In this document: piece after piece, positions 4,800 through 62,916 of the stretch | How positions within the stretch are numbered: position 1 is the first letter of the stretch | Layout: every line of letters begins with the position of its first letter | Source of the DNA: Thermoanaerobaculia bacterium | Lineage (GTDB): Bacteria; Acidobacteriota; Thermoanaerobaculia; Multivoradales; Multivoraceae | Assembly (NCBI GenBank): GCA_963664405.1 | Contig: OY761158.1 | Coordinates: 6,400,001-6,464,000 of the forward strand | Length of the DNA stretch: 64,000 bases | Direction of reading: 5' to 3' | Translations under genes and position numbers: made by a program | The notes under the pieces: model-generated | The model's database searches: none | What the model saw: only the letters and a program-made list of their open reading frames with translations | Told to the model about the DNA's origin: nothing

Positions 4800-4963
4800 T
4801 AGACCAGCGTTTCCAAAGTTCGCGCACATATCTCGGCCCCTTCTGCCCGCTGCCGGCGTTACGCCTCCTCGACATATTGCCCAATATGCCTGCGTCGGCG
4901 CGCCTGGCCAGCGAACAGAATGAGCTCGAGCTATGCAGCACGAACTTTGGAAACGCTGGTCTA
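4800..4963 (-). repeat. TA-flanked palindromic element, family A, short form (adds 162 nt), intergenic
   Basis: Terminal inverted repeat TAGACCAGCGTTTCCAAAGTTCG...CGAACTTTGGAAACGCTGGTCTA; near-identical to 22740-22903 in opposite orientation. Confidence 0.92.
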
Positions 4964-5016
4964 GTTTGCGCCATGAGCTGAATAGGCGCAACTTCTTGCG
5001 GTCTCCTCCGTTACTT

Positions 5017-5068
5017 CTCTTGACGGTCTACAGGAACGCGTGGTATCACTACTGTAGACCATCAAGAG
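5017..5068 (+). promoter_or_regulatory. Inverted-repeat operator overlapping the padR promoter
   Basis: CTCTTGACGGTCTACAG-N18-CTGTAGACCATCAAGAG (16/17 match), containing TTGACG (5020-25) and TATCAC (5044-49), just upstream of the RBS. Confidence 0.7.
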
Positions 5069-5075
5069 GAAGGCC

Positions 5076-5420
5076 ATGGCACACGACCAATCCGAACTTC
5101 TCCAGGGCACGTTGGAGCTCTTGATCCTGAAGACGCTCTCGCTCGAGCCGCTGCACGGCTGGGGGATCAGCTTGCGGATCCGGCAGATGTCGAGAGACGT
5201 GTTCCAGGTGAACCAGGGAAGCCTCTATCCCGCACTCCAGCGGATGACGTCCAAAGGCTGGATCCGCTCCGAGTGGCGGACGACAGAAAACAATAGGCGC
5301 GCGAGGTACTACATGCCGACCCCGGCAGGGGAGCGGGAGCTAGCCCGGGAGCGCTCGCAGTGGGAGCGCTCATCAGCCGCCGTCAACTGGGTCCTCAACT
5401 CGACCGGAAACACCGCATGA
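5076..5420 (+). CDS. PadR-family transcriptional regulator (acidobacterial type)
   Basis: LLQGTLELLILKTL...HGWGI...GSLYPALQR...ENNRRARYY. Confidence 0.95.
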   Translation: MAHDQSELLQGTLELLILKTLSLEPLHGWGISLRIRQMSRDVFQVNQGSLYPALQRMTSKGWIRSEWRTTENNRRARYYMPTPAGERELARERSQWERSSAAVNWVLNSTGNTA

Positions 5421-8135: not shown

Positions 8136-8142
8136 GACGCGG

Positions 8143-8280: not shown

Positions 8281-8281
8281 T

Positions 8282-8917: not shown

Positions 8918-8964
8918 GGATGATCGAGGGCGCCACCATCGCGAGATGGCGCGCTCGCAGCTCT

Positions 8965-10611
<1,647 letters not shown>

Positions 10612-12310: not shown

Positions 12311-13639
12311 ATGGCCGGAGCTCTGATTGCCGATCGGCTTGCCAGAGAAATCGACGATCGGAGCGCGCTTGTGGGAGTCGTCGGGTTGGGCTACGTCGGT
12401 CTCCCGTTGGCACTTACCTTTGCCGAGGCCGGTTTTCGTGTGCTCGGGTTCGACACTGACAAGGCGAAGATCGAGGCCTTGGAAGAAGGTCGCTCCTATA
12501 TCGGTCACCTCGGCCCAGAACGGCTCGCCGCGTGTCGGGACGGCGGGCGCTTTGAGGTCACCTCTTCGTTGGCTCGTCTCGGCGAGCCCGACGCAATCTT
12601 GATCTGCGTTCCGACGCCGATCACCGACGACCGTGAGCCCGATCTCTCTTTCGTCGAGGCGACGGTCGAGGCGATCGCCGAGACTCTTCGAGCGGGCCAG
12701 CTGGTGGTCCTCGAGTCGACCACCTATCCGGGGACGACGGAGGAACTGCTTTTGGGGAAGCTGTCGGAGAATGGTCTCGAGTGCGGTCGTGACTACTTTC
12801 TGGCCTTCTCACCCGAGCGGGAAAACCCCGGTGACAGCGAGCACAGCACCGACAAGATGCCCAAGGTGGTGGGAGGCGTCGACGACGAGAGCGGCGACCT
12901 GGCCGAAGCCCTATACGGCGCGGTGGTCCCGCGCACGGTGCGGGTGTCTTCGGCGGCGGTGGCCGAAGCGGCGAAGCTCACCGAGAACATCTTCCGTGCG
13001 GTCAATATCGCCCTCGTCAACGAGCTCAAGATGATTTACGAGCCGATGGGGATCGATGTCTGGGAGGTGCTCGACGCCGCTGCGACGAAACCCTTCGGAT
13101 TTATGAAGTTCACTCCCGGCCCCGGTCTTGGAGGGCACTGCATTCCAGTCGATCCGTTCTATCTGGCGTGGAAGGCCCGCCAGTACGGAGAGGAGGCTCG
13201 CTTCATCGAGCTCGCCGGCGAGGTGAATGCGGCCATGCCGGCGTACGTAGTCGGGAAGCTGCGAGAGGCCCTGCAGGAGCGAGGGATGGAGTTGTCGGGG
13301 AGTCGAGTGCTCCTCCTCGGACTGGCCTACAAGGCCGACGTCGACGACCCCAGAGAGAGTCCGGCTTTCGAGATTCTCGACCAACTCCTAAGCGAGGGGG
13401 CGGTAGTCGCGTACCACGACCCGCACATCCCCTCGGCGCCCCGAATGCGCTCCTGGCCCGATCTTCCCGAGCTCGCTTCGGTCGAGCTCACGCCGAGCAC
13501 GCTCGCGGGACACCATGCGGTGGTCGTGGTTACGCCGCATCAGGCGATCGATTGGCACCTCGTGGCGGAGGAGGCGCAACTGATCGTCGACACCCGGGGG
13601 GTATATCGCAAGCCTCGTTCCAACTTGGTCAAGGCCTAG
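12311..13639 (+). CDS. UDP-N-acetylhexosamine/nucleotide-sugar dehydrogenase
   Basis: GLGYVG, ICVPTP, ESTTYPGTT, FSPER, GPGLGGHCIP, DPRESP. Confidence 0.93.
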   Translation: MAGALIADRLAREIDDRSALVGVVGLGYVGLPLALTFAEAGFRVLGFDTDKAKIEALEEGRSYIGHLGPERLAACRDGGRFEVTSSLARLGEPDAILICVPTPITDDREPDLSFVEATVEAIAETLRAGQLVVLESTTYPGTTEELLLGKLSENGLECGRDYFLAFSPERENPGDSEHSTDKMPKVVGGVDDESGDLAEALYGAVVPRTVRVSSAAVAEAAKLTENIFRAVNIALVNELKMIYEPMGIDVWEVLDAAATKPFGFMKFTPGPGLGGHCIPVDPFYLAWKARQYGEEARFIELAGEVNAAMPAYVVGKLREALQERGMELSGSRVLLLGLAYKADVDDPRESPAFEILDQLLSEGAVVAYHDPHIPSAPRMRSWPDLPELASVELTPSTLAGHHAVVVVTPHQAIDWHLVAEEAQLIVDTRGVYRKPRSNLVKA

Positions 13640-13817
13640 CCTGGATTATTCATGAAGCTCCTACTGCGGTGCCGCAGCTGCCCGAATCTACTGCGTTGCG
13701 CTCGGTCGGGCCCCTCGACGTATTGCCAAATACGCCTGCGGTGCCCTCGGTTGCGACGCCTTGTATCTCCGGGCATCTGCGGCACCTCGCTACGGACCTC
13801 ATGAATAGTCCAGGCTA
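13637..13817 (-). repeat. TA-flanked palindromic element, family B (adds 179 nt), on a stop codon
   Basis: TIR TAGCCTGGATTATTCATGA...TCATGAATAGTCCAGGCTA; core CCTCGACGTATTGCCAAATACGCCTGCG related to family A. Confidence 0.85.
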
Positions 13818-13883
13818 GACCCGATTCGAAGACCCCACTCCCACGATTCTGCGTGTTGGCGCGTCGCCGCGAGCCTCGTCAGC

Positions 13884-15617
13884 TCAGTCGACCACGAGTC
13901 TCTCCGCTTCCAGCAGCGGAATCAGCTTCTCCGGGGGTAACGCCTTGTGAAAAAGGTGCCCCTGGAACTCATCGCAGTCGCTCTCTCGCAGGAACTCGAA
14001 CTGACGTCGGGTCTCCACGCCTTCGGCGACCACCTTCAATTTGAGACGGTGGGCCATGGAGATGATCGCCGCGGTTAGGATCGCCGTGTCGGAGCCGGTC
14101 CCCGCATCCTGGACGTAGCTCCGGTCGATCTTGATCGTGTCGACGGGAATTCGGCGCAGCAGTTGGAGAGAGGAGTACCCGGTGCCGAAGTCGTCGAGGT
14201 AGAGCCCGAGACCCATGGACTTCAGAATCCCCAGGGCGGAGATGGTCGCCTCGTCGTCTTCGAGGATGGTGCGCTCGGTGATCTCGAGCCGGAGTTGGGA
14301 GGTCGGCAGTGCCAACCCCCTGATCAGGGTGGCGATCCTTCCCACCTGCTCGGGACTCCTGATTTGCACGCCCGAGATATTTACCGATAGAGGAACCGAG
14401 ACGAGGCCGGCCTCGCGCCACTCCTGCCACTGCTTGCAGGCAGTCTCCAGCACCCATTCGCCGATAGGGATGATCAGGCCGCTCCTTTCTGCAATGGGAA
14501 TGAACTTCTCCGGTGGAATGAAGCCTTCTCTGGGATCCGCCCACCTTATGAGGGCCTCCGCCCCGGCCAGCTTGTCGCTCAGGGCATTTCGGATCGGCTG
14601 ATAGTGGATGGAGAACGCTTTGCTCGCCAGAGCCTCCCGCAGCCTGCTCTCGAGGTCGAGACTCCGAGCGTCGCTTCGCTTCTCGGGCTTGGAGAGGTGG
14701 CGAGCCTGGCTGCGTGGACTGAGGCACGTCGTTTCTTTAGCCTTGTCGATCAGAGTGTCTGGGTCTCGACCATCGCCCGGGAAGATGGCCATCCCGACTC
14801 GCGCGGCGAGTCTGATCTCCCTCGCCCCTGGGCTGAGGGGTTGGGCCAGAGTTTCGTGAAGCTCTTGGATGACCCTGGCGGCGCCGTCATCCTTGCTGGG
14901 ATCCTGGAGCATGACGATGAACTCGCTATCTCCCACGCAAGCGACCTTGTCGCTCTCGCGTATGACCTTCGAGATGCGTTCGGCTACCAGTCTCAGCAAC
15001 TTGTCCCGGTCGGGCCGTCCGAGCGGTTGGTTACCGCCCCTGAAGCTGTCTAGATCGATGAAAACTACCGCCACGTGCTGGTGGCTGCGCTTTGCGCTAA
15101 CTATGGCGAAGTGCAAATCCTCTCGGAAGGACGCTCGATTCTGAAGACCGGTCACACCATCGTGGCGGGCCAGGAAGATCTCTTGTGTCCGAGCCGCGTG
15201 AAGTTCCATGAGAAGACGATGTCGAGAGAGCGCACCGAGGACGGTGTGCTCGAGAAGGCGCTGATTCCACCCTCTCGTCACCAGAAAGTCCTGCACGCCA
15301 TCGCACCGGGTCGTCAGCTTCCGCCCACGCTCGTCGTCTTCGACCAGCGCGACAATGGGAGTTCGCCTGCTCTGCCACAGCCGCTCGAGATCTGCCGACC
15401 GGACCTCCTCGTGCCCCCTGGTCTCCACGACCAGGAGGTCATAGTTGGCCCCTGCCAACGCGGCCTCTGCATCGTCGAGGTCGTCGGTGTGTGACACCTC
15501 TATGTTGGCCGTCGTGATCCGCTCGAGTGCGTGCCTAATACGCCACGCTTCCCAACGGTGGCTGTTTACGAGGAGAAGTCTCACGGCCTCGACCTTCCCC
15601 CAAAACCCGCAAAACAC
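13884..15617 (-). CDS. REC-like/GGDEF(degenerate)/EAL c-di-GMP phosphodiesterase
   Basis: EAL, LEITE, DDFGTGYSSL, VVAEGVE intact; the GGDEF site reads VGDSEF. Confidence 0.9.
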   Translation of the reverse strand: MFCGFWGKVEAVRLLLVNSHRWEAWRIRHALERITTANIEVSHTDDLDDAEAALAGANYDLLVVETRGHEEVRSADLERLWQSRRTPIVALVEDDERGRKLTTRCDGVQDFLVTRGWNQRLLEHTVLGALSRHRLLMELHAARTQEIFLARHDGVTGLQNRASFREDLHFAIVSAKRSHQHVAVVFIDLDSFRGGNQPLGRPDRDKLLRLVAERISKVIRESDKVACVGDSEFIVMLQDPSKDDGAARVIQELHETLAQPLSPGAREIRLAARVGMAIFPGDGRDPDTLIDKAKETTCLSPRSQARHLSKPEKRSDARSLDLESRLREALASKAFSIHYQPIRNALSDKLAGAEALIRWADPREGFIPPEKFIPIAERSGLIIPIGEWVLETACKQWQEWREAGLVSVPLSVNISGVQIRSPEQVGRIATLIRGLALPTSQLRLEITERTILEDDEATISALGILKSMGLGLYLDDFGTGYSSLQLLRRIPVDTIKIDRSYVQDAGTGSDTAILTAAIISMAHRLKLKVVAEGVETRRQFEFLRESDCDEFQGHLFHKALPPEKLIPLLEAERLVVD

Positions 15618-15810
15618 GGGGTGACGCCTCGACGCCTAGAGAGCCCAAGCCGGCGGCCAACGTTGGGCGCCCTCAGATGAATCGCTGTTGGGCCGAGAAG
15701 TCTAAAATACGAGGGCCCGATGGGTCAAAGAGCTGGATCGTCATACAAGTATGCGCTCCCTCTCGAGCTTGTTGCAGGCGGCCAGCACGATGCGGCCGCC
15801 GAGCGCCGTC

Positions 15811-16701
15811 TTACCTGCGGGAGCGAGGTTTCATGTGCCTCGCTGCAAACGACGACGGCCCATCCCAGACGGGACTATCGGCCCGCCAAGGTTGCGGGAC
15901 TTTGATGTAGACCGAGATCCACTGCTTGCTGCGCCGGGCAATAGCGTGGCAGGTGAGAGAGAGGCCGCTCGCGCTCACGCAGTCGAAGACGCCCGTGTAA
16001 CGCTCCGTGGTATAGGGAGTGAGAAAGCCGACCCGTTGGTCTCGAATCCAGACGGAAACGCAGGCCACGGGCGGCCCGTCTCCGGTGTCGTCTTGGTCGG
16101 GCCGCTGGAGCCGCGCCGTAACGCTGCGGTGCTTCTCAGAACCGAGAACGCCTTCGAGGAAGGGCTGGCAGTCCTGCACTCCGGTCACGGCGACTTCATC
16201 GCCGGGGGGGAGGAAGGGCGTTTCGGGCGAGGATGGCCGCGGCGGATTGCCGGCAAGTAGACAGATGCCGAGAAGGTCGTCGCTGACCTGACGCCGGTTC
16301 CATCCTGCCTTGAGGCGAGCGTGGCAAGACGCTGGTTTCCCTCGAGACCAGAGGTCCTTGATGAGCTGGTTGTACTCGGGAACGTCCGCGGGTGCGATGA
16401 AGCCGACTGTCATTCCGCCCACGTCGACCCTGATGTTCTTGGTGTCGACGCGCTTCCCGGGCTCGGGCACCAGCTCAGCAAGTACCAACAGGCTCCTGCT
16501 CCCAGGCGTCCGAGGATCTCCCCCATAGGCTGCCTGGAGAGCCTTCCGGCGACTTTCCTGGACAACTACTTCGCACTCGAGCTCGGAAGCGATGGTGGGT
16601 ACTTGAAGCCACGAGGGAGAAACTATCGCCTCGGGCCGCGGTGGAAGGGTGTCTCTGGGGGCGGATTTGAAGATCTCGCCGAACAACTCGAGCAACTGCA
16701 A
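15811..16701 (-). CDS. Hypothetical protein with two HIRAN-like repeats
   Basis: LVPEPGKRVDTKNIRVDVGGMTVGFI and VSVWIRDQRVGFL resemble degenerate HIRAN motifs. Confidence 0.5.
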   Translation of the reverse strand: MQLLELFGEIFKSAPRDTLPPRPEAIVSPSWLQVPTIASELECEVVVQESRRKALQAAYGGDPRTPGSRSLLVLAELVPEPGKRVDTKNIRVDVGGMTVGFIAPADVPEYNQLIKDLWSRGKPASCHARLKAGWNRRQVSDDLLGICLLAGNPPRPSSPETPFLPPGDEVAVTGVQDCQPFLEGVLGSEKHRSVTARLQRPDQDDTGDGPPVACVSVWIRDQRVGFLTPYTTERYTGVFDCVSASGLSLTCHAIARRSKQWISVYIKVPQPWRADSPVWDGPSSFAARHMKPRSRR

Positions 16702-16766
16702 TGCTGACTCTCCTCCACGGAGGGGCCGTAGTGTATCACCTCGGGGAGCCCCCTCAGGGACCTCGT

Positions 16767-18070
<1,304 letters not shown>

Positions 18071-18086
<16 letters not shown>

Positions 18087-19588
18087 TTCCTCTTCACGGC
18101 TTCCCGATCCACGGAACCGTCCTCGCTCTTGGGTAGCTCTCTTGTGACCTCAAGATATCCCGGGCGCTTGAAATGGGCAATACGCTCGCCGACGAAGCTA
18201 CGCACCTCTTCGAGGCTGAGCAAGGAGCGCTTGGTCTCGATGACCGCCTTTATGCCCTCACCCCACTTCGGGTCCGGCACTCCGAAAACGCAGACTCCGC
18301 GAACGCTCTCCATCTGGAGGACGACACTCTCCACTTCGGCGGGATAGACGTTCTCGCCCCCGGGCTTGATCAGCTCCTTTTCGGGCTTGCGTTTGACATA
18401 GAAAAGATTGCCTTCTTCGTCGAAACGACCCACATCGCCGGTGTGATGCCAACCGCCGCGAAAGGTGTGCTCGGTGACTTCGGGCTGCTGGTCGTAGCCC
18501 AAGAAGATGAGCGGGCCGCGCGCCACGATCTCGCCCGGCTCTCCCGCCGGCACTTCGTTGTCGTCGTCGTCGACGAGCTTGACCTGAGCGAGGCTGCTGG
18601 TCTTGCCCGCGGCGCCCGGGAGATCGGTATAGCGCTGGATGGTGACGAAGCCGGAGGTCTCGGTCTGGCCGAACCCGGTCCAGAACTCGGCTCTCTCGGT
18701 TTCTTCGTGAAGACGTTCCATGGTTGCCGGCGCGTCGAGCCCCGAGACGACACGAAGGCTCGGAAGACGGGTGCCGGCGAGCGCGGCGGCGTCGAGGACA
18801 TTGGCGAGCAGCGGTGGGAAGTCGCTGAGGAAGGTGACCTGGTGCTGGTCGATCAACCGCACCGCGTCCTCAGCGTCGAACTTGGGCATGACGACATTGG
18901 CTCCGCCGGCCTGAAAGACGGCAAGGGCGTTGCCCAGCCCGGCGATGTGGAAGAGGGGAAGGGCGAGGAGGTTGCGATCGGTGGACGACATGGCCATCGC
19001 ACCGATCTGTTGAGCGCTGGAGGCGAGAATGTTGACGTGGGAGAGCATCGCACCACGAGGAATGATGTCGACAGCCGCGGTGGCGATGACCGCAAAAGGG
19101 TCGGAAGATTCGACGATTGCCTGGGGCGTGGTGGTGTCGCTGTACAGGAGCTCGAAGGCGGTCCAGCCTGGCTCAGGGTCTCCGTCGAAGACTGCGCGCA
19201 GAGAGAGGGTTTCGTCGTTCGTGACCTCTTCGGGAACTTTCTCCATCGAGAACTGGTCGGCGACGAAGGCGCTGGGTTTCGCGCGTTCCAGCATGCGCTC
19301 GATCTCTTGGCCGGACCAGCGCCAGTTCAGGGGATACGCGACGAAGCCTTGGCGGGCACAGGCAAGATAGAGCTCGAAAAAGGCGGCGAAATTCTGCGCC
19401 AAGATGCAGATCCGATCTCCTTGGGAGAGCCCGGTCGCGGTCAGTCCGGAGCCCAGGGCATCGACTCGCGTCAGTAACTGAGAGTAGTTGAGGGTGTCGC
19501 CGGTTTCGGTGACCAGGGCAAGGTCAGCCGACTGAGCTTGGGCGTTGCGAGCGAGCAAGTGGTAGAGGGTGAAGCTGCGAGGATTCAT
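18071..19588 (-). CDS. Acyl-CoA synthetase (AMP-binding)
   Basis: LPLFHIAG, GFGQTETS, HHTGDVG, IKPGGENVYPAEVE. Confidence 0.92.
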
Positions 19589-19662
19589 CTGCGACGAGTA
19601 TATGACGGGGTTGCGGTCTCGCCTGGGCACTTCGAAGGTCCGAAGACGGTTACAATCCGCGC

Positions 19663-20403
19663 ATGCAGCTACAGACTTCTACCTGGCTAGAGGTCGAGAC
19701 CTATCTCGCGTCCTCGACCGGCCTCCTGATCCCGATCGGCGCCACCGAGCAGCATGGTCCCAACGGCCTTATCGGCACCGACGCCATCTGCCCAGAGACG
19801 GTTGCCAGGAGGGTCGGCGATTCGCTCGGCGCGCTGGTGGGACCGACCCTGAATGTAGGGATGTCTCAACATCACATGGCCTTTGCGGGCTCGATGACTC
19901 TGCGCCCTTCGACTCTCATTTCGGTGGTGCGTGACGTTGTCGAGTCGGTGGCTCGCCATGGCTTTGACTCCGTCTATTTCCTCAACGGGCACGGCGGCAA
20001 TATCGCCACCGTGAATACTGCGTTCGGGGAGATATACGGGAGCGGTTTGCGAACGGGTAGCGGCGCGCCGGTTCGACTTCGACTCCGCAACTGGTGGAGT
20101 GGAAAGCGGGTGAACAAGTTGGGGCCCGAGCTCTTCGCCAACTCCGACGGCGCCCACGCCACCGCTTCCGAGGTGTCGCTGAGCTGGTATGCGCATCCCG
20201 ACGCGGTGAAAAGGGTGGAGATGAGTCCGAAGGTCGCACCCTACGGTCCGATTCGCGACGCCGAGGACTACCGCAAGCGCTTTCCGGATGGGCGCATCGG
20301 ATCGGACCCGAGCTTGGCCACGGTCGAGGCGGGGGAGAAACTCTGTGCTGCCGCGGTGGCCGACGTTGAAGACGACTATCGGCAGTTTCTGAAGGGGGGC
20401 TGA
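19663..20403 (+). CDS. Creatininase family protein
   Basis: PIGATEQHGP...GTD, NGHGGN, HATASEVS. Confidence 0.92.
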   Translation: MQLQTSTWLEVETYLASSTGLLIPIGATEQHGPNGLIGTDAICPETVARRVGDSLGALVGPTLNVGMSQHHMAFAGSMTLRPSTLISVVRDVVESVARHGFDSVYFLNGHGGNIATVNTAFGEIYGSGLRTGSGAPVRLRLRNWWSGKRVNKLGPELFANSDGAHATASEVSLSWYAHPDAVKRVEMSPKVAPYGPIRDAEDYRKRFPDGRIGSDPSLATVEAGEKLCAAAVADVEDDYRQFLKGG

Positions 20404-20405
20404 GC

Positions 20406-20993
20406 TTGGAAGGTGAGGGCGTAGCCTCGCCCGAGGCGAGCGAGCGAGTATTCAAGTGCAGTCCGGGTGGGGCAGTGGCTTTGGGAAAACGCCGGATCAG
20501 GCGACTGCTCTTGGGCTTGGCGCTCCTCATGGCGGGCCTGGGGGTTTGGATGTTCGTGGTCGGTCGTTGGGGCCCCGGCCTGATCTGCTGCGGAGCCGTG
20601 GCGCTGATCTTGTTGTCTCTGAGTATGAGTGGCGACCTCGACCCGCTGTGGCTGACTGTCAGCCGCGGTCGACTATCGGTGCAGATGCGTCGTAAGAGTC
20701 AGGCTCTCGAGCTTGTTTCGGTGACGTCGCGGCGCCTGGCCGCCGAGGAGCTCCGCCATCTCAGCTCGCTGAGCGCGGCTTCTGGAGTTATCTTCGCGAC
20801 CGCGAGCTTCGAATCCCACCTTCTTGGCGCCTTCGACCTCTTCGCTACCGATCTCGACAACGCGGTGGCAGTGGAGGTGGACGCGCCCCCGGAGCAGGAA
20901 GAGGATCGGATCTGCTGGGTGGTGACGCCGGACGACCCGGCCGGTTTTCTCGAGGCTGTTGAGATTGCCGGCGGCGCGGAAGCGCTCGAATAG
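20406..20993 (+). CDS. Hypothetical membrane protein
   Basis: Two TM segments then ...WVVTPDDPAGFLEAV (PH-like tail); operonic spacing. Confidence 0.6.
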   Translation: MEGEGVASPEASERVFKCSPGGAVALGKRRIRRLLLGLALLMAGLGVWMFVVGRWGPGLICCGAVALILLSLSMSGDLDPLWLTVSRGRLSVQMRRKSQALELVSVTSRRLAAEELRHLSSLSAASGVIFATASFESHLLGAFDLFATDLDNAVAVEVDAPPEQEEDRICWVVTPDDPAGFLEAVEIAGGAEALE

Positions 20994-21045
20994 CCTTTTC
21001 TGAAGTATTCTTCTTTCTTCTCAATGAGAACCAATGGAGGTAAGT

Positions 21046-21636
21046 ATGCGTAGAGCGTTGATTCTGTTTCTTGCAGTGATGCTTCTTGCAGGGTCCGGTG
21101 CAGTCATGGGGCAGGGCGGAAAGCCTAAGAGCCCGGCCGGAAAGGCGGCTACACAGGTGGGTGAGTCATGGATCGAGATCAGCTACGGCCGCCCCATTCT
21201 TCGCGGTCGCCAGGCTATTTTCGGCGAGGGAGAAAGCTACGGTCAGGCTCTCTTGAAGGGGGCCCCGATATGGCGCGCGGGTGCGAACGTGTCGACACGC
21301 CTCAAGACCGACCTCGATCTCAAGTTCGGTGACACCGTCGTGGCCGCCGGAGAGTACAGCGTGTTCATGGACCTCAAGGCTGGGGGCTGGACCTTCATCG
21401 TCTCCAACCACAACGCCCAGCTCGAGTTCGATAGGGACAACAAGAGCGCGATCTGGGGAGCCTACGGTTACACGCCGGAGAAGGATGTGGTGCGGGTGCC
21501 GATGACCCTGGAGACCACCGAGTTTTCGATCGACCAGCTCACCATCGGCTTTGCTGGCATGACCGATGAAGGCGGAGGTATCTACCTGATCTGGGACAAC
21601 CAGTTGGCGTCAGTGCCCTTCACTATCGAGAACTAG
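21046..21636 (+). CDS. DUF2911 domain secreted protein
   Basis: Signal peptide; YGRPILRGRQAIFG, IWRAGAN, AGEYS; GGAGG RBS. Confidence 0.85.
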   Translation: MRRALILFLAVMLLAGSGAVMGQGGKPKSPAGKAATQVGESWIEISYGRPILRGRQAIFGEGESYGQALLKGAPIWRAGANVSTRLKTDLDLKFGDTVVAAGEYSVFMDLKAGGWTFIVSNHNAQLEFDRDNKSAIWGAYGYTPEKDVVRVPMTLETTEFSIDQLTIGFAGMTDEGGGIYLIWDNQLASVPFTIEN

Positions 21637-22283: not shown

Positions 22284-22742
22284 ATGGGTGATGCCGGACA
22301 GCAGAGCCCCTGGTATGCCGAGGGTCTCGAGTTCAGCTGCTCTGGCTGTGGTGACTGCTGCAGGGGCGAGGGATATGTATGGGTAAGTCCTGAGGAGATT
22401 GAGGCACTAGCGGACTTTCTCGGTATCGAGATCGCCGAGATGTCAAAGCGGTATCTGCGCAGCTTCGGTCCGGAGACCAGCTTGACCGAAAAGGCCAACT
22501 ACGACTGCATCTTCTGGGAGGGGCATTGCACGGTCTACGCCGCTCGGCCCGGTCAGTGCCGGACCTTCCCGTTCTGGCCCGACAACATCGCCAGTAAAGG
22601 GGCGTGGAATGAGCTCGAGCGGCAGTGTAGGGGAGCTGGGCAGGGCGAGCACTACGACCTGATCCAGATCCGGAACCTGTCACAGGGCCGCGGCAAGACC
22701 GAGAATGGCCCGCCGGAAGGGGGCTGTTGCGGTTCGGGTTAG
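22284..22742 (+). CDS. YkgJ-family cysteine-cluster protein
   Basis: CSGCGDCC...CIF...CTVYAARPGQCRTFPFW. Confidence 0.88.
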   Translation: MGDAGQQSPWYAEGLEFSCSGCGDCCRGEGYVWVSPEEIEALADFLGIEIAEMSKRYLRSFGPETSLTEKANYDCIFWEGHCTVYAARPGQCRTFPFWPDNIASKGAWNELERQCRGAGQGEHYDLIQIRNLSQGRGKTENGPPEGGCCGSG

Positions 22743-22903
22743 ACCAGCGTTTCCAAAGTTCGTGTTGCATAGCTCGAGGTCATTCTGTTCGCTGGCCAGG
22801 CGCGCCGACGCAGGCATATTGGGCAATATGTCGAGGAGGTGCAACGTCGCCAGCGGGCAGAAGGGGCCGAGATATGTGCGCGAACTTTGGAAACGCTGGT
22901 CTA
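22740..22903 (+). repeat. TA-flanked palindromic element, family A short form (adds 162 nt), between convergent stop codons
   Basis: Same TIRs; its two ends supply the TAG stops of both flanking genes. Confidence 0.93.
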
Positions 22904-23809
22904 AATTGTCTCTGGGGCGCCCTCTTCTTTGGCACGCGCATCATGCCCGGCCTTGGCCTCCATCAGTCGCGGCATGATCTTGTCGATGTCTTCGACATCC
23001 CACAGCCCGTCCTTGGTGAAGGAGCGGATGACCGCCGGCTGCTGCATGATGCCGACCCAGCCTCGCATGATGTCGATGATCTGGCCGCTGACGCCCTGAC
23101 CGTTCTCGGAGGCGAGCCAGGCGACGACGGGAGCGATCTGGGCGGGACTCTGGTCGGGCGCGTCGATGTCGACCGAGGCTCCTCGAGCTCGCCGTAACTC
23201 GATGGTCATCCGAGTCGAAGCCCCGGGAGAGATTGCGTTGACGGTACATCCGTACTTGGCCAGCTCGAGGGCGAGGACTCTGGTGAAGCCCGCGATCCCC
23301 GCTTTGGCGGCCCCATAGTTGGATTGGCCGAAGTTGCCGTAAAGGCCGGAGACCGACGAGAAATTGAGGATGCGGCAGTTCGGTCGGCTGGTTTCGCGAA
23401 TGTAGCGGGCAAAAGGTCTGCTACAGCAATAGTGCCCCTTGAGGTGGACGCCGATTACGGCATCCCAATCATCTTCTTCGAGGTTGAAGATGGTGCGGTC
23501 GCGCAGAATGCCGGCGTTGTTTACCAGAATGTCGAGCTTGCCGAAGCTGTCCAAAGCGGTCTGGAAGATGCGCTTGCCGCCGTCGACCGTTGCGACCGAG
23601 TCGTAGCTCGGCGCTGCCTCTCCGCCGGCAGCGGCGATCTCCGCGACGACTTTGTCTGCGATGGGCGACGCTCCGGTGCCGTCGGTGGCGCCTCCTAGGT
23701 CGTTGACGACAACTTTGGCTCCCTGCCGGGCGAGCTCGAGAGCGATCTCACGCCCGATACCTTGGCCGGAGCCGGTGACGATGCCTACTTTTCCTTCTAG
23801 TACGCCCAT
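22901..23809 (-). CDS. SDR oxidoreductase (hydroxyacyl-CoA dehydrogenase-like)
   Basis: TGSGQGIG, VVVNDLG, NNAGILRD, YGAAK. Confidence 0.92.
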   Translation of the reverse strand: MGVLEGKVGIVTGSGQGIGREIALELARQGAKVVVNDLGGATDGTGASPIADKVVAEIAAAGGEAAPSYDSVATVDGGKRIFQTALDSFGKLDILVNNAGILRDRTIFNLEEDDWDAVIGVHLKGHYCCSRPFARYIRETSRPNCRILNFSSVSGLYGNFGQSNYGAAKAGIAGFTRVLALELAKYGCTVNAISPGASTRMTIELRRARGASVDIDAPDQSPAQIAPVVAWLASENGQGVSGQIIDIMRGWVGIMQQPAVIRSFTKDGLWDVEDIDKIMPRLMEAKAGHDARAKEEGAPETI

Positions 23810-23888: not shown

Positions 23889-24130
23889 TAGACCAGCGTT
23901 TCCAAAGTTTGCGCACATATCTCGGCCCCTTCTGTCCGCTGGCGGCGTTTCGCCTCCTCGACATATTGCCCAATATGCCTGCGTCGGCGCGCCTCGCCCC
24001 GTAGAACGGACCTGCGGCCCGTTCTCCGGCCCATCCCCACCTGAGAACTACTCGCCTGCTTCGCAGGCTCCTAGCCAGCGAACAGAATGACCTCGAGCTA
24101 TTGCACACGAACTTTGGAAACGCTGGTCTA
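23889..24130 (-). repeat. TA-flanked palindromic element, family A long form (adds 240 nt), on the M28 gene stop
   Basis: Same TIRs plus a 78-nt internal module. Confidence 0.93.
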
Positions 24131-41679: not shown

Positions 41680-41689
41680 AATGGAAGCG

Positions 41690-42166
41690 ATGACGCGCTC
41701 GCTGCAGGCCGGTATCTTCTGTTTGTTGGTCGCAGTTGTCGGCTCGAGTGCGGCCGAGGATTCGAGCGCTGGTTTCGCCCCGGAGACCTGGGAACAGGGT
41801 GCGGAGGGACTCTTCGGCGCGATCCGTACTCTCGAAGAGGGGGATCACACGGTTCCGATGGTGGTGTATTTCTACACCGATTGGTGTGGCTACTGCCGGC
41901 AATTCGAGCGCGAGCTCCTCGGCAAAGAGAAGGTGAGGGGTTACTTCGAGGATCTTCTCGCGGTGCGGATCAACCCGGAGAAGGGTGACCAGGAGCGCCA
42001 GGTCGCCGAGTATTACGGCGTCAACGGCTATCCGGCATTTTTCGTTCACAGCAGTCGTTCCCGAACTCTCTCCAGGGTAGAACGAATGGTGGTCGAGAAT
42101 GGGCAGCCACGCCTGAAGTCCGAAGACGAGTTCCTGCGCGCTGTGGCCGAGGCGGCCGCTCGCTAG
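41690..42166 (+). CDS. Secreted thioredoxin-like protein
   Basis: Signal peptide; FYTDWCGYC; GYP cis-Pro motif. Confidence 0.85.
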   Translation: MTRSLQAGIFCLLVAVVGSSAAEDSSAGFAPETWEQGAEGLFGAIRTLEEGDHTVPMVVYFYTDWCGYCRQFERELLGKEKVRGYFEDLLAVRINPEKGDQERQVAEYYGVNGYPAFFVHSSRSRTLSRVERMVVENGQPRLKSEDEFLRAVAEAAAR

Positions 42167-42327
42167 TGTCCTGTACCAGTAGTTCGTCACATAACTCGCT
42201 GGCCCTTTTGCGTCCTGCCGTCGTTGCACCTCCTCGAAATATACCCAATATGACTTCGTCGGCGCGCCTTGGCAGCCCACAAAATGACTGCGCGATTTAT
42301 GCAACGAACCACTGATACAGGACACTA
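42164..42327 (-). repeat. TA-flanked palindromic element, family C (adds 162 nt), on a stop codon
   Basis: TIR TAGTGTCCTGTACCAGTAGTTCGTCACATAA...TTATGCAACGAACCACTGATACAGGACACTA; interior alignable with family A. Confidence 0.88.
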
Positions 42328-50338: not shown

Positions 50339-50344
50339 TCGGCC

Positions 50345-50586
50345 TAGACCAGCGTTTCCGAAGTTCGAGTCGCATAGCTCGAGGTCATTCTGTTCGCTGG
50401 CTAGGAGCCTGCGAAGCAGGCGAGTAGTTCTCAGGCGGGGATGGGCCGGAGAACGGGCCGCAGGTCCGTTTTCCGGGGCGAGGCGCGCCGACGCAGGCAT
50501 ATTGGGAATCTGTCGAGGAGGTGCAACGCTGCCAGCGGGCAGAAGGGGCCGAGATAAGTGGCGCGAACTTTGGAAACGCTGGTCTA
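50345..50586 (+). repeat. TA-flanked palindromic element, family A long form (adds 240 nt), on the sulfatase stop
   Basis: Same TIRs; carries a -1 and a +1 indel relative to the other copies. Confidence 0.93.
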
Positions 50587-51903
50587 GTTGCCGCCGATGT
50601 AGCCGAGGCTGCGGAGCTGGTCGGTGTCCTCGGGGCTGAGCTCGCCGTGACGTTGCTCGAACTTCGGAAGCTCCTTGTACCAGTCGGAGAGGATACGGCC
50701 GAGCGAAGGGCGCTGCTCCACCGGGGGTTTCTCGAGAGGACTGAGCTCCGCGGCGTCGTTGGTCAGATCGTAGTAGCGAAGCTTGCGACTGCTGAAGTCG
50801 TAGATGGCCTTGAGCTCCTGGGTCTGGGCGCTGATCGCGAGAGGGTGGTTGTAGGTCGAGCGCCCCTTCTTGGTCAGCGCCGTCGCGCGCTCTCCGACCG
50901 AATATCGCAACGGGGCTCGATCCTCGCCCGGTGTCGACCAAGAGCTCGAAAGACTGTGCCCCGAGGCCTCTTCCAGGGGCGGCAGGCCCAACACGTCGAG
51001 GATGGTCGGAGCTACGTCGACGATCGAGGCTGGAGTTGTGATGCGACGACCCTGCGGAATGCCGGGGCCCTTGATGATCAGAGGGATCCTGAGGTTTGGC
51101 CAGTGGGTGTTCTTGCCGTGCCCCCAGTAACCGTGCTCGCCGAAACTCTCGCCATGGTCGCTGAGGAATACGACCACGGTGTTGTCCATATCGAGGTGCT
51201 TGGCTACTCCCTCCAGTAGACGGCCGATCCAGTCATCGGTGAAAGCGACCTCGCTGGCATACCTCCATCGTTTCTCCCAACCGCGCTGTCGCTCTTCTTT
51301 GGGCGGCCGTTCTTTGGCGTGGGGCTTCTTGAGATCAAAGGGGCTGTGCGGCTCGCTGTAGTGAACCCACAGCAGCACGGGCTTGGAGGCGTCCTGCTTC
51401 GCGAGCCAGCGGAGTGCCACTCCGGTTACCGTCTTGGCGTCACGCTCGACCGCTCCGAAGGCGTTGCGCTCGAGGTTGAACTCTTCGTCGAATATCTCGA
51501 AGCCACGCCCCACACCGGAAAGTCGATCTCTCAGAGTCCAGTTGGTGACGAAGGCGCCTGTCGCGTAGCCTCGCTCCGCCAACACTACCGGCAGCACCTC
51601 GACGTCCTGGCGCATCCGCACGCCGTTGCGACGAGCTCCATGACTCGGCGGGTGTAGCGAAGAGAAGAGGGACGCGAAGGAGGGGCCAGTCTTCCCGATC
51701 ACACTGAGAGTGTCGGCGAAGAGAACGCCCTCGTCGCCGATGGCGTCAATATTCGGGCTGATGTCTTCGCTGTATCCGTAGCAGCCGAGAAAGTCAGCTC
51801 GTAGCGTGTCGACTGTCACCAGTAGGAGGTGAGGCTCCTCGGCGGCGACTCCGTCGGCGAAGAACACGGAGATGGCAAGCGAGACAAGAAATAGGCTCCG
51901 CAT
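50584..51903 (-). CDS. Secreted sulfatase-like hydrolase/transferase
   Basis: VTVDTLRAD, SDHGESFGEH, QLRSLGYI; the active-site region reads KTGPSFAS, not C/SxPxR. Confidence 0.88.
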   Translation of the reverse strand: MRSLFLVSLAISVFFADGVAAEEPHLLLVTVDTLRADFLGCYGYSEDISPNIDAIGDEGVLFADTLSVIGKTGPSFASLFSSLHPPSHGARRNGVRMRQDVEVLPVVLAERGYATGAFVTNWTLRDRLSGVGRGFEIFDEEFNLERNAFGAVERDAKTVTGVALRWLAKQDASKPVLLWVHYSEPHSPFDLKKPHAKERPPKEERQRGWEKRWRYASEVAFTDDWIGRLLEGVAKHLDMDNTVVVFLSDHGESFGEHGYWGHGKNTHWPNLRIPLIIKGPGIPQGRRITTPASIVDVAPTILDVLGLPPLEEASGHSLSSSWSTPGEDRAPLRYSVGERATALTKKGRSTYNHPLAISAQTQELKAIYDFSSRKLRYYDLTNDAAELSPLEKPPVEQRPSLGRILSDWYKELPKFEQRHGELSPEDTDQLRSLGYIGGN

Positions 51904-51908
51904 GGCGC

Positions 51909-52862
51909 TCACGCTTTCGACAGAGTCGCACCGAGAGCTTGCGCCTCTTCGACCGTATCGATGTCCCTGGCGATGGAGAGGGCATTCTTCAGAGGCAGGT
52001 AGGTTCGGCGCTGTGGATGACGCTTGCGGTGCCGGCGCCTGACGAACATCTGTCGTAACGCGTCTTCCAGCTCTTCCCGCGTGATGACACCTCGTCGCAG
52101 CCGGTCCGCGGCCCTGACGCCACTTCGCACGACGTCCCAGGTGAGAGTGGGTAGACGCCCCGAGGTGATGTGGAGAAAGTCCTGTCGCACCAGGCTCCAA
52201 AGGACGTGGCGCAGGATGTAGGAGCGTCGATATCGGATCGGCCGGTTCCGCGTGCTATAGGCGAGGTCGAAAAGGCGATAGAGGAAGGCGAGTCGCAGGC
52301 TCGTAGGGTCGACGATGGCGAGGTGCCCGGGAAGGATGCTGCAAGCGGTCTTTCCGGGCTCCGGAACGACGCGGTAGCGCGGCTTCCAGTCGGAGGCGCC
52401 CAGGTTTCCGGTGCCCTCAGTCAAGATCAAGGGGAACCAGAGGTCCAAAGGCACCGCGCTCCAGTAGTCGTCGAGAAGCTCACTGAGCTCGCCCAAGTCG
52501 GGAAGGACGTCGCAGGTGATGAAGGCCACGTGCTGCCCGGGGCATTCGTTTATCACCGTTTCGAGTGCGATCTGGATGTTTTCGCCGAAGCTACGGTCGG
52601 TGTCGATGAGGCGCAGAGGGTTCTCGGCGCGACTGTAGACGGGCGCCGGCCCCGCGACATAAATCGGGCCGAAGGCGCCGCAGCTCTCGAGCCGCTCGAC
52701 CAGGTTGTCGATGAGGTAACGGCCCGCAAGCATTATATCGATCCCCTTGCACCCCGACAGCGGGTGTTTGTCGCGCCCCTGTGGGGGCAGCGACGCTGGT
52801 GTTTTGTCGCTTCCGCCGAGGATAATCAGCGGGATTGCTTGGCGAGAAGGAGAGCCCGACAC
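51909..52862 (-). CDS. Hypothetical protein, nucleotidyltransferase (MobA-like) fold
   Basis: IILGG near the N-terminus, FITCDVLP, ARDIDTVEE. Confidence 0.6.
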   Translation of the reverse strand: MSGSPSRQAIPLIILGGSDKTPASLPPQGRDKHPLSGCKGIDIMLAGRYLIDNLVERLESCGAFGPIYVAGPAPVYSRAENPLRLIDTDRSFGENIQIALETVINECPGQHVAFITCDVLPDLGELSELLDDYWSAVPLDLWFPLILTEGTGNLGASDWKPRYRVVPEPGKTACSILPGHLAIVDPTSLRLAFLYRLFDLAYSTRNRPIRYRRSYILRHVLWSLVRQDFLHITSGRLPTLTWDVVRSGVRAADRLRRGVITREELEDALRQMFVRRRHRKRHPQRRTYLPLKNALSIARDIDTVEEAQALGATLSKA

Positions 52863-58542: not shown

Positions 58543-58546
58543 ACCG

Positions 58547-59569: not shown

Positions 59570-60591
59570 GCTTCGCTGACGCTTGGCTATTCTGGATTCT
59601 CGTCCCGGTGGCCGTGCTCTGGGGCGTCGTGTGGCTACTGCTACCGTCCTGGCGCCGGCGTCGCGGAAGCGAGGCGGCAGTCCGTTTCTCTACTCTGTCG
59701 CAGCTGCGTCGGCTTCGCCCGTCCTTCAGCCTCGTTCTGCGTCGGGTGATCCAAGGTCTGCGCATAATCACTGTAGCTTTGTTGGTGATGGCGATGGCTC
59801 GGCCTCAGACCGGAAGAAAGCTGACTCAGATCTCGAGTGAGGGAATCGACATCGTCTTGGTTCTGGATACCTCCGGAAGCATGCAGGCGCTCGATTTGGA
59901 CAGCGACCGCCCCATCCAGCGGCGGCGCAATCGGCTGGAGGTGGCGAAGGCGGTCGTACGCACCTTCGTCGAGAAGCGAGAGAGCGATCAGATCGGACTG
60001 GTCGTATTCGGCGAGGAAGCCTTCACTCAATGCCCTTTGACTCTCGATCACGGCATCCTGGTGAGTTTTCTCGAGCAGATCGAGCTCGGTATCGCCGGCG
60101 ATCGGACGGCGATCGGCTCTGCGATCGGAACCGCGGTCAAGCGACTCCGAGATTCCGGTGGGAAGTCGAAGGTCATTATTCTCTTGACCGACGGGCGGAA
60201 TAACGCCGGCACTTTGAATCCGAGCACTGCAGCCGAGATAGCGCGAACCCTCGGAGTGAAGATCTATGCGGTTGCGGCGGGCACTCGTGGCAAGGCTCCT
60301 TTCCTTGTCGACTCTCTCTTCGGCCAGCGTGTCGTTCATCAGGATGTGGAGATCGACGAGGAACAGTTGCGGGAGCTGGCCGAGACCACCGGAGGGGCCT
60401 ACTATCGCGCGGAGGATCTCGACGCCCTTGTTCGCATCTACGAGGAGATCGACCAGCTGGAGCGCCGAGAGATCGAGACCAGTTCCTATATGGAGTATGA
60501 CGAACACTTTCCTTGGTTTGTCTTTCCAGCGCTCTCTCTTCTCTTTCTCGAAGTCGTGTTGCTCGGTACCCGCTTCCGGAAGCTGCCATGA
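59566..60591 (+). CDS. batA: vWA domain protein BatA
   Basis: MARPQ, DTSGSM (MIDAS), PLTLDH, LLTDG.NN. Confidence 0.88.
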   Translation: MSFADAWLFWILVPVAVLWGVVWLLLPSWRRRRGSEAAVRFSTLSQLRRLRPSFSLVLRRVIQGLRIITVALLVMAMARPQTGRKLTQISSEGIDIVLVLDTSGSMQALDLDSDRPIQRRRNRLEVAKAVVRTFVEKRESDQIGLVVFGEEAFTQCPLTLDHGILVSFLEQIELGIAGDRTAIGSAIGTAVKRLRDSGGKSKVIILLTDGRNNAGTLNPSTAAEIARTLGVKIYAVAAGTRGKAPFLVDSLFGQRVVHQDVEIDEEQLRELAETTGGAYYRAEDLDALVRIYEEIDQLERREIETSSYMEYDEHFPWFVFPALSLLFLEVVLLGTRFRKLP

Positions 60592-61670
60592 AGCGGAAAT
60601 TCATCTATCGGAGCTCGATGCTCGCTCTCTCTTCGTTCTTGACCGGCTGCGACGCCAAGGTGGGCAACACCCAGGCGCTATGGTTGCTTTGGCTGGTGCC
60701 GCTGCTCTTCGCTGTCTATGTCTTCGATCATCGAACGCGGGCTCGACTGCTGCGCCGCTTCGCTTCGATCAAGCTGCTGCCGCGACTAACCCAGGGGGTG
60801 AGCCGTGGACGCCAGTACCTCAAGGCCGGTCTTGTCTTAGTCGCGCTCCTTGCGATGGTGGTTGCGCTGGCGGAGATCAAGTACGGCTTCACTTGGGAGG
60901 AGTTGCAGAGACGTGGAGTCGACATCGTGGTCGCTATCGACGTCTCCGACAGCATGCTGGTGGAGGACGCTGGTGGTGCCGGCTCGCTCAGTCGGTTGGA
61001 GCGCGCGAAGCGAGAGATCACCGATCTTCTCCGGCTCATGGAAGGAGATCGGGTCGGGTTGGTGGCCTTCGCCGGTACCGCGTTCTTGCAGTGTCCGTTG
61101 ACCCTGGACTACGGAGCGGCGGAGATTTTTCTCAGCGCTATCGATACGGACCTGATTCCGGTCAAGGGGACCAACCTCGCTCAGGCTCTCGATGCATCGC
61201 TTGCCGCCTTCAAGGGGTCGGCGCAAGATGCCAAGGCGGTGATCCTGATTACCGATGGAGAGGACCATTCGGGGCGTGCGCTCGAGGTCGCGGCGAAGGC
61301 GCAGGAGCAAGGTGTGCGTGTGTTCACGATTGGCATCGGGCGCGATGAAGGTGCGCCCATCCCCGCTGCCGGCGGTGGCTTCCGGCGCGATCGTGGTGGC
61401 GAGATCGTTCTCAGCCGTCTGGATGAGCCGACTTTGCAGAAGATCGCGCTCGACACCGGCGGCCGCTACGTCCGGTCTGTGACCGGGGACGTCGACTTGG
61501 AGCAGATCTATTTCCATGGCATCAAAGCGACTCTCGAGGATCAGGAGCTACAGTCTGAGCGGCGGCAGCGCTGGGAAGACCGTTTTCAATGGTTTCTGGC
61601 GGCTGCGCTGCTCGCGTTGATGGTCGAGCCGTTGATCGCGGAGAGAGTGAGGGTTGCCGCAGATGGCTAG
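60588..61670 (+). CDS. batB: vWA domain protein BatB
   Basis: DVSDSM, SRLERAK, PLTLDY, ITDGEDH, SRLDE. Confidence 0.85.
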   Translation: MKRKFIYRSSMLALSSFLTGCDAKVGNTQALWLLWLVPLLFAVYVFDHRTRARLLRRFASIKLLPRLTQGVSRGRQYLKAGLVLVALLAMVVALAEIKYGFTWEELQRRGVDIVVAIDVSDSMLVEDAGGAGSLSRLERAKREITDLLRLMEGDRVGLVAFAGTAFLQCPLTLDYGAAEIFLSAIDTDLIPVKGTNLAQALDASLAAFKGSAQDAKAVILITDGEDHSGRALEVAAKAQEQGVRVFTIGIGRDEGAPIPAAGGGFRRDRGGEIVLSRLDEPTLQKIALDTGGRYVRSVTGDVDLEQIYFHGIKATLEDQELQSERRQRWEDRFQWFLAAALLALMVEPLIAERVRVAADG

Positions 61671-62916
61671 ACCAGCGTTTCCAAAGTTCGGGCTGCATAG
61701 CTCGAGCTCATTCTGTTCGCTGGCTAGGAGCCTGCAAGGCAGGCGAGTAGTTCTCAGGCGGGGATGGGCCGGAGAACGGGCCGCAGGTCCGTTTTCCGGG
61801 GCGAGGCGCGCCGACGCAGGCATATTGGGCAATATTCGAGGAGCGCGGGGGCGCCCAGCCAACGCCGCCAGCGGGCAGAAGGGGCCGAGATATGTGCGCA
61901 AACTTTGGAAACGCTGGTCTAGAACGGTCCTTTTCATCGTGTTCATGTTGACGGTCGTTTCGGTCGCTGGAGTCGCGGCGCAGACTGAGGGCGAAGACGT
62001 AGAACGTTTGTTGGAGGAGACTCTCGACCGGCCCGAGGGGAAAGCTCCCGAGCGCTATCGCAGCCCCAAAGACGCCTGGGACGAGGGCGCCTGGGATCAA
62101 GCGCTACAGGGCTTCCTCGACATGGAGGTCGTCAAGCCGGAGAGCTCAGCGCTGCAGATGAACATTGGAGCCACCCACTACCGCCTCGGAGACTTCGATG
62201 CCGCGACGCTCAGCTTCGCCGCGGCGGCGGCAAACGGGGACGAGGGAGCGAAGGCCGAGGCCTACTACAACCTCGGGAACGTAGCCTTTCGGCAGGGGCA
62301 GCTGGAGGAGGCGATCGCCCATTTTCAACGCAGTCTCGAGCTCGACCCGGACGACGAAGATGCCAAGTTCAATCTGGAGTTCGTCCGCAATGAGATCCGT
62401 CGTCGTCACGAAGAGGCCTCCAAGCGAGAGCAAGAGCAACAAGAGCGACAGCAGCAGGGAGAGGAAGAGCAGCAGCAGGACAGCTCTTCCGAGCAGGAGG
62501 ACTCGGGTGAGTCCGAGGGGAGTCAGGAGCAGCAAGAAGGAGGCGGCGGTGAAGGCCAGGACCGCGACCAGGACGGCTTGCCCGACGAAGTAGAAGAACA
62601 GGGGCAGAACCCGACCGATCCGGACCAGCCAGACACTGATCAAGATGGTCTCACCGACGGCGAGGAGGATCTCAATCGCAACGGAGCCGTCGATCCTGGA
62701 GAGACGGACCCGAACTTGGCAGACTCCGATGGAGACGGGATCTCTGACGCCGAAGAGAGGATGGCCGAGGGCGCCGCCGCCGGAGCTGAAGAGGAGGTTG
62801 AGGGTCGGGAGATGACGCCGGCGGAGGCCGAGCGCTATCTCCAGGCGCTCGAGGAGGGCCGGCCCCAGCGTCAGGTACCTGCAGGTCGTCGAGGCCGAGT
62901 GGAGAAGGATTGGTGA
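61663..62916 (+). CDS. batC: BatC-like TPR protein with DxDxDG repeats, carrying an 84-codon in-frame repeat insertion after codon 2
   Basis: AYYNLGN TPR, AKFNLE, Q/E-rich linker, C-terminal EKDW; removing the element gives the signal peptide MARTVLFIVFMLTVVSVAGVAA. Confidence 0.8.
   Translation: MARPAFPKFGLHSSSSFCSLARSLQGRRVVLRRGWAGERAAGPFSGARRADAGILGNIRGARGRPANAASGQKGPRYVRKLWKRWSRTVLFIVFMLTVVSVAGVAAQTEGEDVERLLEETLDRPEGKAPERYRSPKDAWDEGAWDQALQGFLDMEVVKPESSALQMNIGATHYRLGDFDAATLSFAAAAANGDEGAKAEAYYNLGNVAFRQGQLEEAIAHFQRSLELDPDDEDAKFNLEFVRNEIRRRHEEASKREQEQQERQQQGEEEQQQDSSSEQEDSGESEGSQEQQEGGGGEGQDRDQDGLPDEVEEQGQNPTDPDQPDTDQDGLTDGEEDLNRNGAVDPGETDPNLADSDGDGISDAEERMAEGAAAGAEEEVEGREMTPAEAERYLQALEEGRPQRQVPAGRRGRVEKDW
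61668..61921 (+). repeat. TA-flanked palindromic element, family A long variant (adds 252 nt), in frame within the batC-like gene
   Basis: Same TIRs; no stop codon in the host frame. Confidence 0.93.

Follow-up and report, generated by a model that had tools for sequence, protein, structure and literature searches.

The 64,000-nucleotide stretch examined here (hereafter the window: positions 6400001-6464000 of contig OY761158.1, a single 6.78-Mb contig, 62.6% G+C, of the Thermoanaerobaculia bacterium assembly GCA_963664405.1) carries seven long-hairpin elements that, according to a first-pass annotation made from the sequence alone, have a common core and terminal stems that differ from family to family. 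Miniature inverted-repeat transposable elements, or MITEs, are usually taken to derive from a single transposon by internal deletion, with conserved ends and junk inside, and the locus thus raises the question of what kind of element keeps its inside while changing its ends, and by what it is moved. Based on a genome-wide census, on the structure of the insertion sites and on a comparison of the element ends with those of insertion sequences (ISs), we consider it likely that these elements are non-autonomous DNA transposons, that is, MITEs of the IS630/Tc1-mariner type, in which a conserved core is combined with exchanged ends.

A conserved core with family-specific ends

All seven elements lie where the first-pass annotation had placed them (Table 1): 7/7 begin with TAG, finish with CTA and are matched by an nhmmer profile of the core (28.8-69.4 bits), five belonging to family A and one each to families B and C. 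They are small (164-254 nt) and lack a transposase gene, and A1 and A2, which are 96% complementary over 164 nt, are the same element in opposite orientation. As had been proposed, the A and C elements each make a net addition of 162 nt. Genome-wide, the iterated core profile finds 257 core loci (plus strand, 131; minus strand, 126), from which it can be seen that the window is mildly enriched (seven copies against 2.43 expected, Poisson P = 0.012).

Complete elements were sought as two ends of one family in inverted orientation, at most 4 mismatches being allowed, and the exact element ends given here were taken from this search for pairs of terminal inverted repeats (TIRs). It was used in place of local self-alignment, which overran the hairpin boundaries into the flanks, and of single-linkage clustering of the arms, which fused families. 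It yields 253 end pairs, of which 142 belong to family A, 30 to F, 21 to C, 16 to D, 13 to B, 12 to I, 11 to E and 8 to G, which makes at least eight end-families. Counts of flanks, contexts and totals refer to the 245 pairs of 150-300 nt, three long composites and five short pairs having been dropped, and these 245 complete elements span 41,756 bp or 0.62% of the genome. Seven families have modal lengths of 164-166 nt, that of B being 181 nt, and a core variant longer by 13 nt was found in A, B, C and F. Consensus sequences were built from copies of modal length (102/142 in A, 5/13 in B, 18/21 in C, 28/30 in F and all copies in D, E, G and I), to which the copies have a median identity of 96.3% in A, 97.3% in C, 98.8% in D, E and F, 99.4% in I and 100% in G. 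Identities this high suggest that several of the families have spread recently.

For 22 sequences from eight families, RNAalifold predicts one long hairpin of 50 pairs; the alignment and model on which this and later searches rest (alignment A2, a label distinct from that of element A2, and model R1) hold 22 of 24 rows, the two family B rows having been omitted as poorly aligned at first. Bases can pair in 94.5% of paired cells, compared with 68.2% in shuffles (0/500 reach the observed value) and 30-44% when partners are slid out of register, and both sides have changed in 40 of the 50 pairs, including 11 of the 12 pairs of an internal helix. Conserved unpaired bases are present in the core. 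The hairpin is real.

Three layers can be told apart by how well they are conserved, with a mean identity between families of 77% in the central 54 nt, 46% in the intermediate arms and 44% in the end modules. The view that these elements form a single superfamily, with a common core and self-complementary ends particular to each family, is thus borne out, and the impression that the pattern of a typical MITE is here reversed can be expressed in numbers. Contrary to what had been thought, the ends are nonetheless not completely different, for several families have in common the first 5-8 bases and a short motif at about positions 17-23, and pairwise identity between end modules ranges from 21% to 71%. 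Arm identity is bimodal, at 69-92% within the group of A, C, D and E and 60-85% within that of G, I and K, and the layers are discordant with one another: A and D are 39% identical in their ends and 92% in their arms, whereas C and G are 62% identical in their ends and 21% in their arms. This discordance argues for an exchange of modules rather than simple divergence.

The elements are mobile and duplicate a TA target

That TA is a duplicated target, as the first-pass annotation had suggested, follows from paralogous sites with and without an element and from the patterns of the flanks. Complete elements are flanked as C-TAG...CTA-G in 191 of 245 cases; a further 18 have kept both TAs and the inner G...C but have a different outer base, which fits a 2-bp duplication of TA and not one of 4 bp; the pattern of a 4-bp duplication at a site other than CTAG was seen in none of the 245 elements. 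Searching the genome with the joined flanks of each element gave matches that span the junction for 10 of 245 queries, among which are four clean pairs of filled and empty paralogues (three of family A and one of family I) with exactly one TA at the empty site; others of these matches reflect an element inserted at the terminal TA of another. Six pairs of neighbouring elements have a terminal TA in common. A contig of a related strain (run X8) joins window position 13639 to 13826 with six letters equal to the right flank, a weak indication that this strain lacks element B; contigs of related populations that end inside A1, A2 and A3 are uninformative on the empty or filled state of those sites. 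Together, these data show that the elements are mobile and duplicate TA.

A contig from another run (X9) joins window 13027-13637 to 16802-21629 with about 45 other letters between; the related strain in question lacks or replaces about 3.2 kb (13637-16802), starting exactly at the insertion site of B.

The target also accounts for where copies are found. CTAG is three-fold under-represented genome-wide (7502 occurrences against 23,230 expected from base composition), and by crude gene calls (5758 genes, 88% coding) 2062 of the 5758 genes end in TAG. The terminal TAG of an element is the stop codon of a predicted gene in 106 of 245 cases, compared with only 11% of other CTAGs, and in the window this holds for B, A2, A3, A4, A5 and probably C. 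Thirteen elements lie inside genes; 74 of the 232 intergenic ones lie in convergent regions, which make up 17% of all intergenic regions. Since CTAG is rare in this G+C-rich genome and is often a stop codon, elements accumulate on TAG stops.

The ends of three families match those of IS630 elements

No transposase had been seen in the window, and we likewise find none there that belongs to the elements: matches to the DDE_3 domain occur at two places in the genome, both outside. The genome contains one full and one truncated IS630-like element with a helix-turn-helix (HTH) open reading frame (ORF) and a DDE_3 ORF. The ends of the resident IS630-like element agree with those of family I at 22 of 34 positions (relative to shuffles, a z of about 6), and those of A and G are weakly similar to its right end (z 2.7-3.8); a resident partner IS exists only for family I.

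Closer partners come from relatives. Genome G039 has a 1196-bp IS630 element with an intact transposase of 365 amino acids (aa; DDE_3 and HTH domains) beside at least 47 equally scoring MITE copies, whose end equals the end of the IS at 22 of 23 positions, and the two ends of this IS differ from the family C ends of the present genome by 2 and 4 mismatches of 24. Every family was represented by its 24-nt ends in a comparison with 21 IS630 loci. The ISs of genomes G018, G021 and G048 carry D-type ends with 2-3 mismatches of 24, in two of them at both ends, and single ends in four further loci come nearest to a C-type, a G-type or a relative's MITE end with 2-5 mismatches, one G-type end at 5 mismatches of 24 being found among the 21. 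Eight further loci gave no end match, and the commonest end of the g11 genus is absent from IS630 loci L084 and L085. Matches at two loci (L076 and L077) were set aside as belonging to MITEs that adjoin the IS.

IS and MITE cease to resemble each other beyond about 30 nt, and a search of the IS630 elements with the covariance model found no core inside them. Ends that are IS630-like, in combination with IS630 elements that are coreless, point to the end modules being sites for IS630 transposases of different lineages and to an inside that is not IS-derived. The matches of C, D and I ends to IS630 ends further argue for ordinary, sequence-specific recognition of TIRs and not of structure alone, and so speak against the recognition by structure that the first-pass annotation had envisaged; its other suggestion, that IS630-like genes with the same ends should be sought, agrees with what we find.

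One strand folds better than the other

The asymmetric core, from which alone strand orientation was assigned, makes it possible to ask whether the two strands are equivalent. They are not: mean folding energies are -107 kcal/mol for the forward strand and -82 kcal/mol for its complement, a difference of about 25 kcal/mol, and the forward strand is the better-folding one in 22/22 sequences, as it is in 28 of 29 single copies from relatives (34 covariance-model matches minus 5 opposite-strand duplicates). Mismatches in the end modules of the eight consensus sequences are biased in the same sense (G:T 23, A:C 3, other 5), and when family B is left out G:T stands at 21 versus A:C at 0. Genes read into an element in the sense direction in 42 cases and in the antisense direction in 55, and between tandem genes the two orientations number 63 and 58 (P = 0.72), so host transcription does not explain the bias. 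For the inferred leading-strand template the count is 155 with the better-folding strand and 102 with the other, and replication explains the bias only weakly. The strand-specific folding bias is supported by the data and has no explanation in the chemistry of IS630 transposition, which leaves room for the structure to matter for something else.

Distribution among relatives

Full-length matches of 162-166 nt to model R1 occur in 40 of 61 genomes and 24 of 34 genera of the order, and in the phylum, at an E value of 1e-6 or better, full-length matches were found in 35 of 151 genomes (a count that includes G108, flagged as unpublished) and 27 of 106 genera. The best 29 copies from relatives are flanked as in the present genome and bring further end types. 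Homologues of the G039 IS630 transposase are present in 20 of the 61 genomes of the order.

A model of end exchange and its alternatives

In the explanation that we favour, the element is an imperfect hairpin of about 165 nt composed of three layers: an outer inverted repeat of about 30 nt that is probably the binding site of one lineage of IS630-family transposase; an intermediate arm; and an asymmetric central core of about 54 nt that is common to all families. A transposase made elsewhere, presumably acting in trans, would excise the element and insert it at TA, preferably inside CTAG, with duplication of the TA, and insertion on a TAG stop would regenerate the stop codon. As to the mode of end exchange, we infer that a new family originates when the shared inside comes to carry ends taken from a different IS630 lineage. 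The core might be kept because lineages that lose it stop spreading. More tentatively, the core could be a functional single-stranded module, either an RNA or a folded DNA strand, that aids transposition or survival, with the core persisting across the phylum by serially taking the ends of active IS630 lineages; we regard this extension as possible and somewhat doubtful. If it were true, the element would parasitise several transposon lineages by means of exchangeable "adapters", would be fixed in its length and would not be a deletion derivative of one IS.

Several observations weigh against an IS630-driven origin. Among the 21 IS630 loci none has A-, B-, E- or F-type ends, and family A supplies five of the seven copies in the window; A-type ends in two relatives (G018 and G014) turned out to be half-elements and not ISs. 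Families D, E, F and G look recent, yet the genome holds only the one full and one truncated IS630-like copy, and the reading frame of the resident IS630-like element is split by an in-frame TGA. Among 56 unpaired ends there are 0 left/right hybrids with a core, so that the exchange of ends is not seen in progress. Across the order, elements occur in 13 of the 20 genomes with an IS630 homologue and in 27 of the 41 without, which is no association, and five of the nine genomes with 20 or more matches have no homologue. A one-strand bias toward G:T wobble is not expected of a double-strand cut-and-paste enzyme, and the empty site of element B in run X8 is weak (one contig, depth 3.9, 88% likeness).

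A TGA between the HTH and DDE parts is a feature of the IS630-like subfamily at about 5164180-5165422 (locus L019) and in genomes G018, G020, G021 and G048; that five genomes have copies with this stop hints at recoding and not at decay.

Could the elements instead be of use to the host and be kept by selection on it, for instance as protein-binding sites, small RNAs or hairpins at the 3' end of an RNA, their mobility being secondary? Conservation of the core across the phylum, its conserved unpaired bases and covarying pairs, the strand specificity of the hairpin and the placement of copies directly on stop codons and in convergent regions would all suit such a role. The absence of a preferred orientation toward genes would not, and within families the core is no less variable than the ends (in C, 0.065 per site in the core versus 0.030 in the ends; D, E and I, equal), so that the copies do not look constrained in place. 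No relevant family match was found in Rfam. We consider a primarily host-selected element very unlikely.

The first-pass annotation had also pointed to HUH tyrosine transposases (RAYT or IS200-type), which would move REPIN-like elements as single-stranded hairpins by recognising the folded stem. Stem recognition would account for self-complementary ends of any sequence and would agree with the better folding of one strand and its excess of G:T mismatches; the TA duplication could then be apparent only, if the element's own end mimics the target, and the Y1_Tnp genes of the genome (about 300 aa) number 13, which is close to the number of end-families. None of these 13 genes, however, is flanked by elements, only two have an element within 2.5 kb, and BLAST of the Y1_Tnp flanks recovers that neighbouring element only. 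Palindromic elements derived from IS200/IS605 lack TIRs, have a separate subterminal hairpin at each end and show a strong bias in their orientation to replication. Here the inverted repeats extend as far as the element termini, where they match the ends of IS630 ISs, there is one long hairpin, and the replichore bias of only 155:102 is far below the strong bias of IS608-type elements. Mobilisation by an HUH enzyme thus appears highly improbable. The thirteen Y1_Tnp genes are paralogous and encode about 293-352 aa (e.g. 6395045-6395956, just upstream of the window), and about 100 nt upstream of several of them lies a short G+C-rich motif that is similar among them.

Slightly less probable still are MITEs of IS5/IS1182-type DDE transposases: two resident IS types (DUF772 and DDE_Tnp_1 transposases, 8 and 4 copies) do have TAG-starting ends flanked by CTAG, and one of them weakly resembles family E (17-18 of 34 positions, z 2.0-2.8), but that likeness came in part from one aberrant copy end and faded once all four IS copies were aligned, no other family matches these ends, and three families match IS630 ends far better.

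Comparison with known repeats

Accepting the IS630-type explanation, a conserved inside (77% between families) joined to the ends of different IS630 lineages inverts the usual picture of a MITE. Plant MITEs of the Stowaway type likewise duplicate TA, are mobilised in trans by transposases of the Tc1/mariner superfamily and have hairpin potential; they have common ends and unrelated insides, which is the opposite of the present pattern. ERIC elements are transcribed into RNA hairpins that depend on orientation. ERIC (MITEEc1) of enterobacteria, likewise an imperfect palindrome and similar in size, is classed under IS630 and, by its description, differs as one family with one end type. The Correia or NEMIS elements of Neisseria, which duplicate TA, are TA-flanked hairpin MITEs with a functional central site; they differ in that one pair of ends is conserved and the inside is variable, and no IHF-like site was identified in the present elements.

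PMC2229807 describes an IHF site in Correia elements together with RNA hairpins that affect mRNA, and presents RUP (repeat unit of pneumococcus) as a small non-coding element of about 100 copies per genome with inverted-repeat ends like those of an IS630-family IS and insertion at TA. RUP also resembles the present elements in inserting into other mobile elements, but it is 107 bp long and tied to one IS (IS630-Spn1), whereas here at least eight end-families in one genome, mapping to different IS630 lineages, have one core and one length (164-166 nt) in common and recur across the phylum. An element "MITEEc1_IS630" is named, and ERIC or MITEEc1 is placed with the IS630 family, in PMC11602168. 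For REPINs, excerpts of PMC3116915 and PMC3733652 describe hairpin stems that keep pairing by compensatory change and one enzyme lineage per population of repeats, and the latter describes REP/REPIN sequences as having no target duplication and as 20-40 bp palindromes that are tagged at one end with GTAG or CGTC. The present elements are likewise long hairpin repeats with compensatory change in their stems; REPINs differ in the RAYT gene flanked by repeats and in the lack of a target duplication, whereas the present elements duplicate TA and form hairpins of about 165 nt. In the literature searched we found no description of ends from several IS630 lineages on a common core with fixed length, phylum-wide spread and one-strand wobble, the supplementary MITE sequences of PMC11602168, which could hold members, lying outside that search; in PMC8841776, MITEs appear in the reference list only.

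If the explanation holds, the superfamily offers a natural system for studying what a MITE needs besides ends that bind a transposase, how non-autonomous elements switch helper transposases and why one DNA strand or transcript must fold. The 106 occupied stop codons and the contigs that end in copies also matter for genome annotation and assembly.

Elements of the window, nested repeats and cargo

The coordinates of the window elements are collected in Table 1. A3, A4 and A5 are longer than the other A copies because an unrelated repeat of about 79 nt, H, is nested in one arm. H is an asymmetric small repeat of roughly 70-100 nt, bounded by CTAG and with about 90 end matches genome-wide, which is nested in 11 family-A copies at one identical site; a single site in 11 copies suggests that the A::H combination spread as a subfamily.

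Table 1. Hairpin elements of the window and their parts (window positions; strand is that of the core)
Feature	Position	Strand	Length (nt)	Remarks
A1 (family A)	4800-4963	-	164	Core match 4844-4907, 69.4 bits; core on minus strand; flanked by divergent predicted genes
B (family B)	13637-13817	-	181	First TAG (13637-13639) is the stop codon of predicted gene 12311-13639 (+)
A2 (family A)	22740-22903	+	164	Terminal CTA (22901-22903) is the stop codon of predicted minus-strand gene 22901-23809
A2, left end module	22740-22770	+	~31	TA plus family-specific inverted repeat; mirror at 22873-22903
A2, central core	22796-22859	+		nhmmer 68.0 bits; portion conserved across all families
A3 (family A, nested H)	23889-24130	-	242	Terminal CTA (24128-24130) is the stop codon of predicted minus-strand gene 24128-25834
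H repeat within A3	23995-24073		~79	Insertion site is a CTAG in the arm of A; position determined by eye
C (family C)	42164-42327	-	164	First TAG (42164-42166) terminates a 196-aa ORF, 41576-42166 (+)
A4 (family A, nested H)	50345-50586	+	242	H at about 50402-50481; terminal CTA is the stop codon of predicted minus-strand gene 50584-51912
A5 (family A, nested H)	61668-61921	+	254	H at about 61725-61804; 13-nt longer core variant at about 61844-61859; first TAG is the stop codon of predicted gene 60588-61670 (+)

Family A also carries larger cargo. Two family-A elements of 2704 bp (6272418-6275121, locus L001, and 6758845-6761548) contain genes for an IS91-type Y2 transposase and a tyrosine recombinase exactly at the hairpin apex, and their flanks differ from the first bases beyond CTAG; movement of the composite on its A ends or targeting of the apex by the insert would each account for this. 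Nested H repeats and 2704-bp composites show that family A tolerates cargo. Another family-A element, at 6281698-6285334 (locus L003), encloses two ORFs of 523 and 269 aa, which, from their sizes, we take to be an IS21-type insert with IstA/IstB-like proteins.

Two further repeats were noted in passing. A different hairpin family of about 110 nt (e.g. 2214777-2214889, 1965325-1965441 and 6044233-6044341) has a central CTAG into which members of families A and I have inserted independently of each other. At the window's start, three matches to Rfam group II intron domains V-VI exceed the gathering score (155-230, 783-873 and 1112-1261), and the stretch in which they lie is part of a multi-copy repeat of about 4.3 kb.

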